The notes under the pieces were generated by a model, which made no database searches, had not been told where the DNA came from, and saw nothing but the letters and a program-made list of their open reading frames with translations. Positions 8,557 through 20,553 of a stretch of DNA of 64,000 nucleotides are shown here, in pieces (positions within the stretch are counted from its first letter, which is position 1; each line of letters starts with the position of its first letter). A program made the translations under genes and the position numbers. The stretch comes from an uncultured bacterium (GTDB taxonomy: Bacteria > Chlamydiota > Chlamydiia > Chlamydiales > Rhabdochlamydiaceae). The stretch lies in the NCBI GenBank assembly GCA_964455905.1, contig CAYVYN010000001.1, positions 210,960 to 274,959 of the forward strand, given 5' to 3'.

Positions 8557-9315
8557 ATGACTACACCTTGCTTTATAGCTTCTCTAAATGCTTTTTCTGG
8601 CGCATATACCCAATCGGATTTTTTCGGAAAAGTAATCATGGGAGCTTTATTTGTTTTATCTATCGTGTGTTGGATCGTTCTTTGCTACAAAATATGGCAA
8701 ACAAAAAAAACTAAAGCATCTTGCATATCTTTTGCTAGAATCTTAAAAAAGCACAAAGACCAAATTTTGGCTTTAGAAAAGTCAGACATCTCCTATAAAG
8801 GCGGACAACAATTCCCTCAACCTTTTGCAGAAATTTACTTTATTTTAAAAGAGAAAACTCTTGAAACCCTAAATAAAAAGCTATACTTCTTAGAGCAGCA
8901 AGGTCAAGGAAAAGAAAACGTATATCTTACTACAAATGACATAGACCTTCTCGAGCAATATGTTTCAACAACCATCTCCACGCAATATAAAATACTAGAA
9001 AAACATGTTTTTATTCTTTCCACCATAGTAACCCTAGCGCCCTTTTTAGGCCTATTAGGCACGGTATGGGGAATACTTGTCACATTCGCAGAACTTCACA
9101 CAGGAAGCTCTGCGAGCTCGAGTTCAGCAATCTTAGGAGGCCTTTCTACAGCTCTTGCTACAACAGTTCTTGGATTAGTTATAGCTATCCCCGCTCTTAT
9201 TTCTTATAATTACTTAAAAACAAATCTAAAGTCTTTTTCTTCTGATATGGAAGACTTCCTGTACACTCTGCTTTCAACCTTAGAATTACAATACAGAAAA
9301 GTCGATCTAAATTAA
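8557..9315 (+). CDS. tolQ: TolQ (MotA/TolQ/ExbB proton channel)
   Basis: Three-TM layout with LAPFLGLLGTVWGILVTF, the family hallmark. First gene of a tolR/tolB/pal cluster. Confidence 0.85.
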   Translation: MTTPCFIASLNAFSGAYTQSDFFGKVIMGALFVLSIVCWIVLCYKIWQTKKTKASCISFARILKKHKDQILALEKSDISYKGGQQFPQPFAEIYFILKEKTLETLNKKLYFLEQQGQGKENVYLTTNDIDLLEQYVSTTISTQYKILEKHVFILSTIVTLAPFLGLLGTVWGILVTFAELHTGSSASSSSAILGGLSTALATTVLGLVIAIPALISYNYLKTNLKSFSSDMEDFLYTLLSTLELQYRKVDLN

Positions 9316-9324
9316 GGATTCTCT

Positions 9325-9753
9325 ATGAAAAACCGACGCTCGATCTCAAACCGATTGCAAAACGATGAAGAAGAGTCCCTATTAAATCTGACGCCTCTTA
9401 TAGACGTCGTATTTGTTGTCCTAATTATTTTCATTCTTATAGCTCCAATGCTCGACATTGACAAAATCCAATTAGCCGCTTCTTCTACAAAAAAAGAAAA
9501 AACAACCCCAGAAGCCTCCCCTATTACAATACAAGTCAAAGAAGACAACTCTATTTGGATTCAGAAAAAAAAGGTATCCTATGAAGAGCTTTTTCAGATC
9601 CTAGTACAAGAGAAAAAAAAACACCCCAATCGAATACCACAACTTTTTCAAGATAAAAAAGCTCAATTCGGAACCTATCAGACAATCAAAAACAGCGTAG
9701 AAAATGCAGGGTTCGAAGAACTCGACGTGATTTTACAGCCGGGTTCGCCATGA
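9325..9753 (+). CDS. tolR: TolR (ExbD/TolR family)
   Basis: LNLTPLIDVVFVVLIIFIL is the single-TM signature. AAGGA RBS. Confidence 0.8.
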   Translation: MKNRRSISNRLQNDEEESLLNLTPLIDVVFVVLIIFILIAPMLDIDKIQLAASSTKKEKTTPEASPITIQVKEDNSIWIQKKKVSYEELFQILVQEKKKHPNRIPQLFQDKKAQFGTYQTIKNSVENAGFEELDVILQPGSP

Positions 9754-10514
9754 TTTCTGGTATAAAAAACCAAAAAATAAAAAAAATAAGCTATATAATT
9801 ATCAGCATTCATTTATTGTGTATAATATATATAAATATATATTCAGAAAAAAAGCCGCGCGAAAAAGAAAAAAAAATTACAGTAAAAACATTTCAATCTA
9901 ATCCCGCAGTCCCCATAACAAAAATACAAACTATTAAAAAAAATCCAACAACCCCATCCACTACCCCTTCCCCCAAAAAAGAAACGCCGAAAGCTCCAGT
10001 TAAAAAAGCTGAACCAAAAGTTTTACCTAAAAAAACGACTCCAATAACAAAAAACAGCCCGCCTACTGAAAAAAAAACAGAAATTAAAGCTGAAAAGAAA
10101 CAGGCTCCCGAACCCCAGGTAAAAAAGAAAAAAAATATCGCACTCGAAAAATCTCTAAAAGAAATCAAAGAAAGCATTGCTAAAATAGAAGCAGAAAATG
10201 ATAGAATAAGAACTAGCTTACCGTCTAAGAGTGCAACTTTAGAAGAAGAAATTCTTCCAAATGATTATGCTTCTTCTTTGGTTTGCTACCTACAGGAACA
10301 ACTCCAATTACCTGATATTGGAGAGGTGAAAATTCAAATAACGCTATTTCCTAACGGAACAGTAGAAAAAATGACAGTATTATCTGCAGAAAGTGAAAAA
10401 AACAAAAAAAGAATACAAGAGAACCTACCAAATTTGCAGTTTCCGCCTTTTCCTAAAAATGCAAGAAATTTGGACAAACAAACTTTTATACTTACCTTTT
10501 GCAATGAAATTTAA
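9750..10514 (+). CDS. tolA: TolA/TonB-like envelope-spanning protein
   Basis: N-terminal TM, a long Pro/Lys-rich spacer (PKKETPKAPVKKAEPK...) and a small C-terminal globular domain. ATGA overlap with tolR. The position matches tolA. Confidence 0.55.
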   Translation: MISGIKNQKIKKISYIIISIHLLCIIYINIYSEKKPREKEKKITVKTFQSNPAVPITKIQTIKKNPTTPSTTPSPKKETPKAPVKKAEPKVLPKKTTPITKNSPPTEKKTEIKAEKKQAPEPQVKKKKNIALEKSLKEIKESIAKIEAENDRIRTSLPSKSATLEEEILPNDYASSLVCYLQEQLQLPDIGEVKIQITLFPNGTVEKMTVLSAESEKNKKRIQENLPNLQFPPFPKNARNLDKQTFILTFCNEI

Positions 10515-16377: not shown

Positions 16378-16621
16378 AAAAAAATTACACATTGGTTTTT
16401 TTTGATAAGAAACAAACACACAAAAAACAACTCTTTGAGCACAATTTCTCAAAAAATGAACGCCTTTTGTAAATAGAAAATGTACAAGTAAATTCCTGAG
16501 GCTATAGATGATATGGGTTAAATTCAAAAGAATTTTTATGTATATTTTAAATAACGCTTGAGAACTTTATGAACTCTATGTAAAGTCTAAACTAGCTTAA
16601 CATTTAGTTTTTAACAAGAAT

Positions 16622-19600
16622 ATGGCACTATCAAACACCTTATCAACGTCCTGCACCTCAGATAAAGCAGAACCTTCTATTGAAAAAAGCATTTCCCTGC
16701 CGTTAAAAATTGAACCAATTTTACCGTATGCGATGCATTCTCCTGAAATCGTTGCTCATGTAAAAGAGATGGAGCAAATCGTTGTAAAGTGTATTCCTCC
16801 TTTTTTCTTTCAAAAAACAACGTCCTTCTTTCAAACCAATCTACTTACTGAACTTCCGATTCTTAGCTGGGAAAAACCAGAAAGTTCCCCCGGGTGCATA
16901 GAACTGTCTTTACTTTGCCTTTCTTCAAAAGAAGATTCTACGGCAACTAAAATTGAATCCATCCTAAAAGAATGGGTTGTTCCTGGAAAAACTACAACTC
17001 TTCTATCCATCAAATCTCTTTATTTTCATTGGGATCAGTTTTCAGATAAATCTTTTCTTGTACTAAACGCTAAATGCTTAATAGAAAGTGAAAAAGACCT
17101 AAATAAGGCACTTACTTTACTCCCTTCTTTTTCGATGCAGCTGACTTCCTGTCTAAAAAGCCCTCACTCATTAAAAGATTTTTTTTCTTTAAGACCTCTT
17201 CTTCAAGAATTCAAACAAACTCAAGTGCACCAGCAACTTGTTCTTCTGATAGAAAAACTCCCCCTGCTCTTTAGCTCAGACCTATTTCTTGAAATGAGTC
17301 GTTTTTTTTCTTTATGCCCAAAATCCTTTTGCGATCCCAGAGCTCCGAGATTAATTACAAAAATTTTGGCTTTTCATTTTTTGATGAGAACCAATCTTCT
17401 TCGCCTAATTTCACTTTTCCCGGAAAAAAAACACCTTGAAATACGCTATATTAGAACTAACCTTACATTTCCCTTCGGCTCAAAACCCGTTGTAGGACTC
17501 GTTTTAGGAATATCTCCGCTAGGGAGACACGAATTTTTTGAAGAATGCCATATTGCTCAAGCAACACAAATGATTCTTCCTGGAACTCGGATAGTCAAAG
17601 GTTCATTTTATACATACCAAGGACCGCAAGACCCTATTTGTACTTTATATCTCGAATTAGAAAAAAAAGATGGCACCTCCTTTTCTGCTACTGAAATAAA
17701 CCTCTTAAAACAAGACTTGGAAGAAAAACTTAAACGTTGTGTAGAAAAACTAGTCCCATCAGTCTTTATGGCTCGCAACGAAGAAGAGACCATGCGAAAC
17801 ATCCTAATACTCAGCCAAGAATTAAAAAGACTATCAGACTTACCACAAGTAATGATTTCCCTTGATTCGCATACAACCTCAGAAATTTCTTTTACAATTA
17901 TACTGGTTAGAATTTTAAAGCCCGGAACCCCCTCTCTTGCCAAAAATTTTACAACTTTAAAATCTGAGGCTTTATTTGTATCAGATCGAGTACAACAAGT
18001 AGGTTTTTTAAAAAAGACAACACCAAAAGAAGCCCACGTTTTTCATCTTCGCTTCCCTAAAAGCAGCAATCTTTTGCGAGCAGATAACTCGGTTAATTTT
18101 TATTTAGCAAGAAGTCGAGCTTCCTCTATTTTGCTAGAAGCAATCGGGCCTTTTAGAGATTATAACGGGGGAATGATCCTGAAACAAGGAGAGCTCTTCT
18201 ATCAATTTCAAGATGCATTTTCTACTATTTCAGAAAAAAACCCAGAACTATTAGAGAATTTTTTCTTTTCTTTGAACCCTATTGAAGTCCAAGCAACTTT
18301 ACCGCTCTTGTCATTAGAAATACTTTTCAACCAATTTTTAGAAGCTCAAAAAACAAAACCTATACAAAAAGAAGACTACTTCATAAAAATTGAAGAACAC
18401 AAAAAGCAACTCTTCACAACAATACGCATACAAGACGTATCATTCAAAGAAGAACTTTTTTCTGCTCTTGCAGCACAAGGACTCTACTCCAAATCGCTTG
18501 TCCAAAGTTCAATTCAGATGCAAGGATCTCTTTACGTAAGCATCGTATTTCCTCACGTAGATGACAAAAAACAAAATCTAATTATCGCTACACTTCACGA
18601 AGCAATCAAAAAATGGGTTCTTAAAATTCAAAATCAACAAGTTTTAAATCTTAGCTTTTTAGAACTTCCACAATCACTAGATCCTAGACTTGCCGGAGAT
18701 GACTACTCTCACACAATTACAAAAATGCTTTTTGAAGGATTAACAAGACTTTCTGAGACAGGAAAACCAGAACTTGCTGCAGCAAGATCTGTAGAAATCT
18801 CTAAAGATTTAAAAAGTTATTTATTCAAACTCAAAAAATGTTACTGGTCTGATGGGTCTCCTGTTTGCGCGCAAGACTTTGCTTACACCTGGAAAAAAAT
18901 TCTATCGCCAGATTTTACAACAGCATTTGCTCACGTTTTCTACCCTATTAAAAATGCTAGGGCCGCTAAAGAAAACCGTTGCTCTATTGAAGATGTGGGT
19001 ATTACGGTACTAGGAGACTATTCTTTACTCGTAGAATTAGAACACCCAACTCCCGAATTTCTAGAACTTACAGCCTATTCCACATACTCTCCTGTGCATC
19101 ACATTATAGATAAAATACACCCTAACTGGAGTATTGGACGATTAGAAGATTTTGTTTGTAACGGACCTTTTGTTATAAAAAAAATCACTAACCACACAAG
19201 CTATGAATTAACCAAAAATTCGTTTTATTGGGATAAAGACCACATTCGCCTACAGAAAATTCTACTATCCAAAAACACAACGCTCGTAGCGAATGAAATG
19301 TTTAAAAATGACGAAATTCACTGGCTAGGTCGACCTATGCATCCTTGGGAAGGCTCCTCTAATGGAATTTCAGAATCATTCACAGTTTCTGCCCCAATAG
19401 GTATTCACTGGTGCATCTTTAATACCGAAAAATTTCCATTCAATAACGCGAACCTCAGACGGGCTTTTGATCTTGCAATCGATAAAAATGACCTCACAAA
19501 AAAAATACCCTATGAACACTTACCTGCATCAACTCCTCTTCCACTCTCCCACACCCTTAATCATTCCGAAGAAAGAACTTTAGGAAATGAAAGTAAAGCA

Positions 19601-20137
19601 CTAGAGCTCTTCGAGCTGGCCTTAGAAGAACTCGGTCTTTCGAGAAAAACATTCCCGCTCCTTACGTTAAATTTCACGAATACGCCCTTAAGAAAAAGCA
19701 TTGCATCCTATATTACAAAAAGATGGAAAGATCTCTTTCAAATTTCTTGTAGATCAGAAGGATTCAACTTCAATACTCTTTTTGGAAAAATTTTAAAAGG
19801 TGACTTTCAAGCAACGTGTATGTCTTGGAAACCTCACGTTAACACACCTGGATTCACTCTAAACGCATTTAAATACGGTAATCAAGATATTAACTTTGCA
19901 AAATGGGCAAATCCTAAATTTCAAAAACTATTAGAGCTAGAAAGAGAGGAACTTGATCCCATAGAAAAAATCAAGCTGCTTTCCGAAGCCGAACAACTTT
20001 TAATACAAGAGGTTCCTTTATTTTCTCTTTTTTATGAAAGAGAACAAAATATAAAAAAGAATCACCTCCACCAAGTAGTATATTCTAGAACTACAGGGCT
20101 TGTTGATTTTAAATACGCCTATCTAGAAAGGAGATGA
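16622..20137 (+). CDS. Fusion protein: unknown ~670-aa N-terminal region plus family-5 (OppA/DppA-type) solute-binding domain
   Basis: The C-terminal part, from about nt 18630, has LDPRLAGDDYSHTITKMLFEGLTR...YWSDGSPVCAQDFAYTWKKILSP, typical of SBP_bac_5. No signal peptide is visible at the N-terminus. Confidence 0.7.
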   Translation: MALSNTLSTSCTSDKAEPSIEKSISLPLKIEPILPYAMHSPEIVAHVKEMEQIVVKCIPPFFFQKTTSFFQTNLLTELPILSWEKPESSPGCIELSLLCLSSKEDSTATKIESILKEWVVPGKTTTLLSIKSLYFHWDQFSDKSFLVLNAKCLIESEKDLNKALTLLPSFSMQLTSCLKSPHSLKDFFSLRPLLQEFKQTQVHQQLVLLIEKLPLLFSSDLFLEMSRFFSLCPKSFCDPRAPRLITKILAFHFLMRTNLLRLISLFPEKKHLEIRYIRTNLTFPFGSKPVVGLVLGISPLGRHEFFEECHIAQATQMILPGTRIVKGSFYTYQGPQDPICTLYLELEKKDGTSFSATEINLLKQDLEEKLKRCVEKLVPSVFMARNEEETMRNILILSQELKRLSDLPQVMISLDSHTTSEISFTIILVRILKPGTPSLAKNFTTLKSEALFVSDRVQQVGFLKKTTPKEAHVFHLRFPKSSNLLRADNSVNFYLARSRASSILLEAIGPFRDYNGGMILKQGELFYQFQDAFSTISEKNPELLENFFFSLNPIEVQATLPLLSLEILFNQFLEAQKTKPIQKEDYFIKIEEHKKQLFTTIRIQDVSFKEELFSALAAQGLYSKSLVQSSIQMQGSLYVSIVFPHVDDKKQNLIIATLHEAIKKWVLKIQNQQVLNLSFLELPQSLDPRLAGDDYSHTITKMLFEGLTRLSETGKPELAAARSVEISKDLKSYLFKLKKCYWSDGSPVCAQDFAYTWKKILSPDFTTAFAHVFYPIKNARAAKENRCSIEDVGITVLGDYSLLVELEHPTPEFLELTAYSTYSPVHHIIDKIHPNWSIGRLEDFVCNGPFVIKKITNHTSYELTKNSFYWDKDHIRLQKILLSKNTTLVANEMFKNDEIHWLGRPMHPWEGSSNGISESFTVSAPIGIHWCIFNTEKFPFNNANLRRAFDLAIDKNDLTKKIPYEHLPASTPLPLSHTLNHSEERTLGNESKALELFELALEELGLSRKTFPLLTLNFTNTPLRKSIASYITKRWKDLFQISCRSEGFNFNTLFGKILKGDFQATCMSWKPHVNTPGFTLNAFKYGNQDINFAKWANPKFQKLLELEREELDPIEKIKLLSEAEQLLIQEVPLFSLFYEREQNIKKNHLHQVVYSRTTGLVDFKYAYLERR

Positions 20138-20189: not shown

Positions 20190-20516
20190 ATGTTAGTAAA
20201 TCTAAAAACAGAAGATGCTAGACTTAATAAAAAAAACCCACTTACAATAGCTTTTCATCCTGATGTTCAAAATTCTTTTGATGCTGAAAGGAAATTAAAA
20301 GATGCTCCGATAGGCTCTTTTTTAACTTTCTCTACCGACGATAAACGTAACTACTGCTCTGCTGTCTGGGAAAATGGAGAAATTGTGACAAATCCACTTC
20401 ATTGGGATGTATCAGGAAGCTGGAAAAATGGTACAGGCGGCCCTTTTGCAACAGTTGAAGATCTTTTAGACCACTTAGTGAATGGCCTTATTCCTATAGC
20501 TTTTACAACCTATTAA
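20190..20516 (+). CDS. Small hypothetical protein with an SH2-like sequence pattern
   Basis: 108 aa. FHPDV..FDAERKL..PIGSFLTFSTDDKRNYCSAV...FATVEDLLDHL parallels the SH2 layout (W.F.G...AE.LL...GTFLVRES....Y.LSV...F.SL.ELV.HY). A strong terminator follows. Confidence 0.35.
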   Translation: MLVNLKTEDARLNKKNPLTIAFHPDVQNSFDAERKLKDAPIGSFLTFSTDDKRNYCSAVWENGEIVTNPLHWDVSGSWKNGTGGPFATVEDLLDHLVNGLIPIAFTTY

Positions 20517-20525
20517 TTAAGTCAA

Positions 20526-20553
20526 AGAGCCCCTTCATAAAGGGGCTCTTTTT
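20526..20553 (+). terminator. Rho-independent terminator
   Basis: AGAGCCCCTT-cataa-AGGGGCTCT followed by TTTTT. Confidence 0.7.

Follow-up and report, generated by a model that had tools for sequence, protein, structure and literature searches.

A leaderless fusion of an undescribed N-terminal region to an OppA-like domain in environmental chlamydiae: a possible cytoplasmic regulator

The subject of this study is an uninterrupted open reading frame (ORF) at positions 16622–20137, forward strand, of a 64,000-nucleotide stretch (the window) from an uncultured bacterium of the Rhabdochlamydiaceae. Its product of 1171 residues carries a complete OppA-type peptide-binding fold behind an N-terminal region (N-region) of about 670 residues. 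The binding fold is ordinary; the family of the N-region (N-family) is, as far as sequence comparison reaches, without known relatives. Tentatively, we read the protein as a possible cytoplasmic ligand-sensing regulator that is linked to the pathway from aspartate through diaminopimelate to the peptidoglycan peptide, and not as the receptor of an ABC transporter.

Three observations argue against a transporter receptor and for intracellular sensing or regulation. The protein is conserved and leaderless, the residues by which OppA holds the two ends of its peptide are lost and a free-standing sister of the N-region is coupled to an aspartate kinase that lacks ACT domains. A sequence-only reading of the locus had already proposed a sensor or scaffold rather than a transporter component. 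This proposal is supported by the leaderless family, by the loss of the anchors in 38 of 38 members and by the several architectures in which the N-region is combined with a substrate-binding protein (SBP) domain.

The OppA-like domain and the missing leader peptide

Pfam SBP_bac_5 (PF00496) matches residues 716–1088 with 163.9 bits (cut-off 32.4), and NCBIfam models of the OppA type align over residues 668–1147 with scores far under their equivalog cut-offs. In a profile search of the PDB, residues 659–1160 were aligned to residues 14–525, that is to the whole, of Bacillus subtilis OppA (PDB entry 8are) with an E value of 8e-142. A model of the whole protein was built with AlphaFold2 (AF2) from the alignment of the family (predicted local distance difference test, pLDDT, 83.8; predicted template-modelling score, pTM, 0.68). 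Foldseek places its C-terminal domain on 8are with a template-modelling (TM) score of 0.88, an E value of 7.5e-43 and 32% identity, followed by DppE and MppA as the next-closest structures. The C-terminal ∼500 residues thus form the complete two-lobed family-5 peptide-binding fold that had been recognized from the sequence. The fold, the length of about 500 residues and the Pfam family are those of B. subtilis OppA (8ARE/8ARN) and of other cluster C proteins, including DppE (8AY0) and MppA (3O9P). The latter two bind murein tripeptide.

The features of the gene as a whole and of its C-terminal part are as follows.

16622–20137, forward strand: whole ORF of 1171 residues, N-region plus OppA-like domain (form A)
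16622–16684, forward strand: residues 1–21, Ser/Thr-rich, no signal peptide; pLDDT <50, no hydrophobic core, not conserved among 38 members
18638–20134, forward strand: residues ∼673–1171, complete OppA/DppE-type fold (cluster C, family 5) according to PF00496, the 8are profile and Foldseek
19817–19837, forward strand: residues 1066–1072, CMSWKPH site; Cys1066 at the position of Arg413 and His1072 at that of Asp419 of OppA

In Salmonella OppA, the α-amino group of the ligand is held by a salt bridge to Asp419, and the carboxylate of short peptides by Arg413. The HMMER alignment places the segment RMGWLGDF of B. subtilis OppA over CMSWKPHV of the 1171-residue protein. Both anchors are therefore replaced, by His1072 and Cys1066 here and by Trp and Gly or Thr in most relatives. 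The counts were taken from an alignment of 41 sequences that includes 38 fused members: not one of the 38 has Asp in the column of Asp419, where Trp is found in 23, Leu in six, His in two and other residues in the remainder, and none has Arg in the column of Arg413. The Trp that flanks the anchor positions is invariant in the same alignment, and the Asp is kept in B. subtilis OppA and in an ordinary OppA of the same genome (contig C1). When judged by these columns, the anchoring of peptide termini that characterizes an OppA-type receptor is absent from every one of the 38 fused members. The fused OppA domain is still under constraint, with many invariant core residues across the 38 members. 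With both anchors lost, an N-blocked or internal peptide is the probable ligand of the clamshell, which has probably become adapted to a molecule that lacks a free amino terminus or to a segment of a protein.

No other start lies between the ATG of the ORF and an in-frame TAA located seven codons upstream, and further in-frame stops lie beyond the TAA. The protein cannot therefore be extended to a signal peptide, and a hidden signal peptide or an upstream start, one of the two findings that would have overturned the sequence-only reading, is ruled out. The best ten-residue hydrophobic stretch within the first 50 residues scores 0.97, versus about 3.1 in the two lipoprotein OppAs of the same genome; the median over 38 homologues is 0.96. 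By this score a hydrophobic N-terminal core is missing in 37 of the 38 diverse fused members, and a hydrophobicity scan of the same 38 gave no segment of transmembrane grade anywhere in the proteins. Residues 1–21 are predicted to be disordered (AF2 pLDDT below 50). The 1171-residue protein thus has neither the Sec signal nor the lipobox of a functional OppA-type receptor, as had been claimed from its sequence. It further differs from OppA in the 670 unrelated residues ahead of the binding domain and in the lack of adjacent permease genes. We consider the fused protein to be probably non-exported and cytoplasmic.

The N-region, its family and its free-standing forms

Residues 1–670 match no Pfam or NCBIfam family and no PDB sequence, in agreement with the earlier statement that no motif can be recognized there, and a Pfam scan of the family of this region (52 proteins in all) gave no known family either. 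The region is modelled well on its own (pLDDT 88.1). The AF2 model shows four α/β modules of hairpin–helix–hairpin–helix topology that are joined by two helical segments, and the repeated α/β modules that had been suspected are therefore present in the model. Internal sequence repeats were rejected, as hhalign detects no sequence similarity among the four modules.

16853–17161, forward strand: residues ∼78–180, α/β module 1 (AF2), absent from relatives of ∼1000 residues
17162–17416, forward strand: residues ∼181–265, helical linker 1 (AF2)
17423–17746, forward strand: residues ∼268–375, α/β module 2 with conserved Glu304/His310 and Tyr343/Glu345/Lys348
17774–17788, forward strand: residues 385–389, motif RNEEE; Asn386, Glu387, Glu388 and Glu389 invariant in fused and free forms
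17834–18151, forward strand: residues ∼405–510, α/β module 3 with invariant Asp406, Pro408 and Arg497
18155–18175, forward strand: residues 512–518, motif RDYNGGM; Arg512, Asp513, Asn515, Gly516 and Gly517 invariant
18158–18361, forward strand: residues ∼513–580, helical linker 2 with a conserved ENFF.S..P block
18368–18637, forward strand: residues ∼583–672, α/β module 4, ending in a long helix that runs into the SBP domain

A Foldseek search with the N-region alone gave no match at E ≤ 1e-3, the best hit having an E value of 4e-3 and a TM score of ≤0.16. The only matches with a probability of about 0.9 are to the ACT-like N-terminal part of the mycobacterial 180 kDa glutamate dehydrogenase (L-GDH180), and weaker hints point to the tandem-ACT protein 2nyi and to the PheRS β chain. 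These ACT-like hints have E values of 4e-3 to 1e-2, again with TM scores of ≤0.16, for modules of the hairpin–helix–hairpin–helix type. Like ACT regulators such as the β subunit of aspartate kinase and the 180 kDa glutamate dehydrogenase (9HV0), the N-region is made of small tandem α/β modules. Unlike them, it extends over 650 residues and includes large helical inserts, it has no sequence or profile similarity to ACT and its modules are of the hairpin–helix–hairpin–helix type instead of βαββαβ; the fold match is insignificant. We therefore treat 'ACT-like' as a lead from the model, not as a finding. Long Foldseek alignments of low probability to insulin-degrading enzyme and to MHC-like proteins were judged to be noise (TM score about 0.1). 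A second SBP lobe, the other finding that the sequence-only reading had named as able to overturn it, is ruled out for the N-region: Pfam, PDB sequence and Foldseek searches give no SBP match, and the region has a family of its own with free-standing members.

A search with residues 1–670 returned 183 proteins, almost all of 1140–1200 residues with PF00496, from sources labelled Chlamydiae, Simkaniaceae, Rhabdochlamydiaceae or Neptunochlamydia. The full-length architecture of 1140–1200 residues is kept in more than 100 environmental chlamydiae, and the mean column identity of the 38 diverse fused members is 54%. Among 1.84 billion cluster representatives, an exhaustive search yielded 758 relatives of the N-region, many of them free-standing proteins of 620–720 residues. 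When 185,579 species genomes were scanned with the two patterns RNEEE and RDYNGGM, 571 relatives were confirmed, and the best 80 of the 571 are all chlamydial or from metagenome-assembled genomes labelled Verrucomicrobia. Judged by these best 80, the N-family is specific to chlamydiae, and the N-region does occur alone. An N-family copy, or more than one, is present in 361 of 401 Chlamydiota genomes sampled across the phylum. Of the genomes without a copy, 20 were listed, of which 17 belong to a single genus; another 20 are outside that list. The genomes of this genus are of 1.0–1.2 Mb, 99% complete and in one or two contigs. We infer that the genus is Chlamydia itself, because of its genome size, its dapB–asd–lysC–dapA synteny and its second contig, presumably a plasmid.

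Four forms can be distinguished: the fusion of about 1160 residues (form A), two free forms of about 650 (form B) and 720 residues (form C) and a shorter fusion of about 1000 residues. In a tree of N-regions the fused proteins form one clade with a support of 1.0, including one outlier of 662 residues that is probably truncated. Asn386–Glu389, Asp406, Pro408, Arg497, Arg512, Asp513 and Asn515–Gly517, among others, are invariant across forms A, B and C, so that one functional site is common to the fused and the free proteins. The shorter fusions start at about residue 180–210 and are without module 1, which is hence dispensable. An architecture with two consecutive SBP domains behind the N-region is also found (1666 residues), and in one genome (L106, G059) form C itself is fused to a C-terminal SBP domain, in a second, independent fusion with the same domain order. 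The joint of this fusion carries a relic, KKLCSNKE, that resembles a former lipobox. The N-region and family-5 binding domains have thus come together repeatedly.

At 19 of 21 loci, the start of form B either overlaps the stop of a gene for 258–290 residues or is no more than 2 nt to a few bases away from it. This gene encodes an aspartate kinase that matches only positions 1–249 of models of 407–421 residues, and the short kinase thus consists of the catalytic domain without the ACT pair. In α2β2 aspartate kinases, the β subunit is a regulatory subunit of the ACT type. Form B resembles ACT regulatory subunits in being a free paralogue with translational coupling to an aspartate kinase that has no ACT domains; the association with an amino-acid enzyme that is typical of ACT regulatory proteins is thus found in this paralogue of the fusion. 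The short kinase is the sole aspartate kinase of most chlamydiae outside the genus Chlamydia (for example at loci L052 and L088–L091). The Chlamydia-like genus has a full-length LysC of 439–465 residues in a dapB–asd–lysC–dapA operon (L087) and no N-family member. In two reduced genomes of 1.2–1.4 Mb from the family to which the window belongs (L084/G250 and L085/G182), the short kinase is directly followed by rpe and form B is deleted. Catalysis hence does not depend on form B, which is what one expects of a regulator.

In the genome of the window the only aspartate kinase is also of the short type (C7:19166–20011, reverse strand) with form B alongside, while asd, dapA and dapB are located elsewhere. 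This form B (C7:17200–19156, reverse strand) is split into two overlapping frames near C7:18824–18912, either by an assembly error or as a pseudogene. An apparent membrane-anchored paralogue on contig C7 was rejected: its 'transmembrane helix' is an out-of-frame reading across the apparent frameshift in a normal free-form gene. Proteins in which the aspartate kinase is fused to an N-family member were rejected as well, as the long open frames that were checked are overlapping genes.

Form C is found directly downstream of a lipoprotein OppA gene at 14 of 17 loci, with a 4 nt overlap at locus L092, and this OppA gene is the orthologue of the OppA gene on contig C4 of the genome of the window. 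At L092, form C is followed by a gene (9296–10189) for a protein of 297 residues that carries a signal peptide and the kinase-like motif GHQSYVF...VIKFYR. Its paralogous matches in the genome of the window (contigs C1, C2 and C3) number at least six, some in tandem, and it has no Pfam or NCBIfam match.

Gene neighbours and the SH2-like partner

The fusion gene is accompanied by the following features.

16378–16621, forward strand: intergenic leader of 244 nt, from the stop of the TPR gene (16377) to the ATG at 16622
20190–20516, forward strand: SH2-like gene of 108 residues, 52 nt after the fusion gene, predicted to be co-transcribed
20524–20551, forward strand: intrinsic terminator, 12 bp stem with six GC pairs and a T-run, 8 nt past the stop of the SH2-like gene

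No terminator was found in the 52 nt gap between the fusion gene and the SH2-like gene, and by this arrangement the two form a predicted two-gene operon. A homologue of the small gene lies directly downstream at 40 of 44 fused loci. Among these partners no Pfam family other than SH2 recurs (SH2 in six of 40, best E value 7e-5). Their alignment fits the SH2 pattern, with an Arg at the FLVR position in several members (for example in TYLLRP), although not in the copy of the window. The partner family evolves fast, with a mean column identity of 13%. In a sample of 121 genomes the small gene occurs in 24, 17 of which also have form A, and in the pairs that were inspected the two genes share a contig and are at most a few kilobases apart. 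The partner thus looks obligate from its distribution. The downstream ORFs listed for the loci of the ∼1000-residue fusions include no SH2-like gene. Some members of the partner family have two tandem SH2-like repeats (209–289 residues), and one genome without form A has three tandem copies of the small gene (G118:C58).

Same-strand pathway genes lie upstream at 27 of 51 fused loci. The gene ddl is found 8–234 nt upstream at 12 loci, at ten of which asd together with a bona fide LL-diaminopimelate aminotransferase gene (dapL) lies 3–5 kb away, murJ is about 1.7 kb upstream of the fusion at 11, and murI is 2.7–5.2 kb upstream at four. To the last group the window, which is outside the 51, can be added with a distance of about 2.5 kb. 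These are three different, clade-specific arrangements. The theme that recurs among the neighbours of the family is the route from aspartate via diaminopimelate to the peptidoglycan stem peptide (lysC, asd, dapL, ddl, murI and murJ). On the opposite strand, an SBP paralogue lies upstream of the fusion at 17 of the 51 loci.

In the window, tolQ/R–tolB–pal, a LysM gene, murI, an OmpR-type regulator, a glycine-zipper lipoprotein and a TPR protein are encoded upstream, and the 108-residue protein, an EamA transporter and a TPR/vWA/rsmD group downstream. As had been noted, no ABC permease or ATPase gene is present among the neighbouring genes in the window. ORF calling and translation agree with the ORF as originally reported, and the AT-rich leader ahead of it is indeed exactly 244 nt long, with a GC content of about 0.31–0.32. 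It contains several in-frame stops, and promoter-like sites occur in it at chance level only. A riboswitch or another known RNA in the leader was rejected, as Rfam gave no match at E ≤ 1.

The source genome (1.96 Mb, 13 contigs, GC content about 0.37) has closest named relatives labelled Chlamydiae or Rhabdochlamydiaceae. Its cluster of opp-type permease and ATPase genes (oppBCDF) is on contig C3 at about 272–275 kb. Two ordinary OppA genes (C1:336493–338049 and C4:214117–215700), both with clear lipoprotein signals and lipoboxes, are likewise unlinked to this cluster. Both oligo_HPY matches (the C-terminus of OppD/F) at C3:272268–273257 (reverse strand) are within open frames of 592 residues, and the opp ATPases may be fused or unusually long. 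Contigs C9 and C12 (18.6 and 5.6 kb) have a GC content of 66–67% versus 35–39% elsewhere and are probably contamination of the bin.

Candidate function and its alternatives

In the mechanism that we tentatively propose, the N-family would supply detachable allosteric or regulatory subunits for the metabolism of amino acids and cell-wall precursors. In the giant protein, such a regulatory core would have gained an OppA/DppE-like clamshell as an input domain, the ligand of which would be an N-blocked or internal peptide. Our favoured guess is a derivative of the peptidoglycan stem peptide with a blocked amino terminus, because the neighbours lead from aspartate to the stem peptide and the closest structural relatives include binders of murein tripeptide. 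The co-transcribed SH2-fold protein would be a partner or adaptor of the giant protein. A stronger version of this proposal, which we regard as rather doubtful, is that the N-region represents a new class of detachable allosteric subunit that took the place of the ACT domains of aspartate kinase in every chlamydial lineage except the genus Chlamydia, and that together with the clamshell and the SH2-fold adaptor it has become a cytoplasmic receptor for intermediates of the peptidoglycan stem peptide that tunes the supply of diaminopimelate and precursors.

Precedents exist for parts of this arrangement. The SgrR-type regulators of Enterobacteria are cytoplasmic and combine an N-terminal DNA-binding domain with a C-terminal SBP_bac_5 domain, and thus use the family-5 fold as an intracellular input domain behind another module. 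Unlike in SgrR, the N-region has no helix–turn–helix and no SgrR_N match (Pfam, NCBIfam); it is also larger by a factor of four and is part of a family that has not been described. In AmpR, a cytoplasmic effector domain that resembles periplasmic binding proteins binds a UDP-MurNAc-peptide. By analogy, a binding-protein-like fold may also read cell-wall peptide intermediates in the cytoplasm here, although the domain is of family 5, as opposed to the LysR type 2 fold of AmpR, and the output of AmpR is DNA binding.

Several points weigh against a cytoplasmic regulator of this kind. The ACT-like character of the modules is weak (E value 4e-3, TM score ≤0.16, modules mutually dissimilar). Pfam ACT matches none of 51 family members at E ≤ 0.1, and hhalign of the N-family against the C-terminal ACT region of chlamydial LysC gives a probability of 0.1%, so that homology to this region was rejected. 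Form C shares its transcript with an exported lipoprotein OppA, which is hard to square with contact between N-region and SBP domain unless the coupling is only regulatory, and which is poorly explained by any model that needs physical contact of the two. The neighbourhoods depend on the clade and synteny is inherited, so that the independent observations are fewer than 27 of 51 suggests. In the window itself the nearest pathway gene is murI, 2.5 kb off with three unrelated genes in between. The architecture, the missing leader, the lost anchors, the distribution of the family and the gene couplings are shown by the analysis; the cytoplasmic location and the target are inferred, as are the ligand and the regulatory output. 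Moreover, the many invariant charged residues would also suit the active site of an enzyme, and a disordered Ser/Thr-rich N-terminus with an SH2 partner of eukaryotic appearance would fit type III secretion too.

That the N-region is an enzyme, such as a ligase, hydrolase or transferase whose substrate would be a peptide or the acyl-phosphate made by the neighbouring kinase, with the OppA-like domain as substrate holder, is in our view unlikely. About 20 invariant polar residues are clustered in loops of module 3 and linker 2 (RNEEE, Asp406, Arg486/Asp488/Ser490, Arg497, RDYNGGM and Lys521/Gln522/Glu524), as would suit catalysis, and ddl lies directly upstream at 12 loci. The position of form C after a lipoprotein OppA gene also recalls the dpp and ykf operons, in which the genes of peptide-processing enzymes follow those of binding proteins. 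However, neither fold nor sequence matches any enzyme family in Foldseek, Pfam or the PDB, no nucleotide-binding or metal motif was recognized and the reduced genomes retain the short aspartate kinase without form B.

Type III secretion of the giant protein and its SH2-like partner, which would then act on host peptides or phosphotyrosine signalling, appears quite improbable. The lack of a Sec signal, the disordered Ser/Thr-rich N-terminus and the eukaryote-type SH2 fold of the partner are all compatible with it. The fused protein is nevertheless strongly conserved (54% mean column identity, versus 13% for the partner), and almost all chlamydiae that do not belong to the genus Chlamydia have members of its family. 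The paralogue coupled to a housekeeping aspartate kinase and the neighbours from the cell-wall and diaminopimelate pathways also speak against an effector, and no chaperone gene is nearby.

It is very improbable that the protein is a long functional SBP that serves the distant oppBCDF through an unrecognized export route: its SBP fold is complete and well conserved, the other two OppA genes of the genome are also unlinked to the cluster on contig C3 and 17 of the 51 loci have an SBP gene upstream on the opposite strand, but 37 of 38 members are without a signal peptide or lipobox, unlike the OppAs of the same genome, the ligand-terminus anchors are gone in every one of the 38, the N-region is not SBP-like and its free forms are linked to aspartate kinase and to no transporter.

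Literature searches gave no description of the N-family, its fusion, the loss of the anchors, the link to a truncated kinase or the SH2-like partner. Bacterial SH2 domains have so far been described, viruses aside, only as Legionella proteins (PMC6208348), and a conserved bacterial partner would be a new context for an SH2-fold protein if location and interaction are confirmed.

The database name 'peptide ABC transporter substrate-binding protein' is very probably wrong for the fused proteins, which provide a case of a periplasmic-binding fold that has repeatedly been recruited into non-exported proteins. The N-region defines a large uncharacterized family that sets the environmental chlamydiae apart from the pathogenic genus and that would account for their possession of an aspartate kinase without regulatory domains. 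It offers a testable entry into how chlamydiae may sense peptides or cell-wall precursors.

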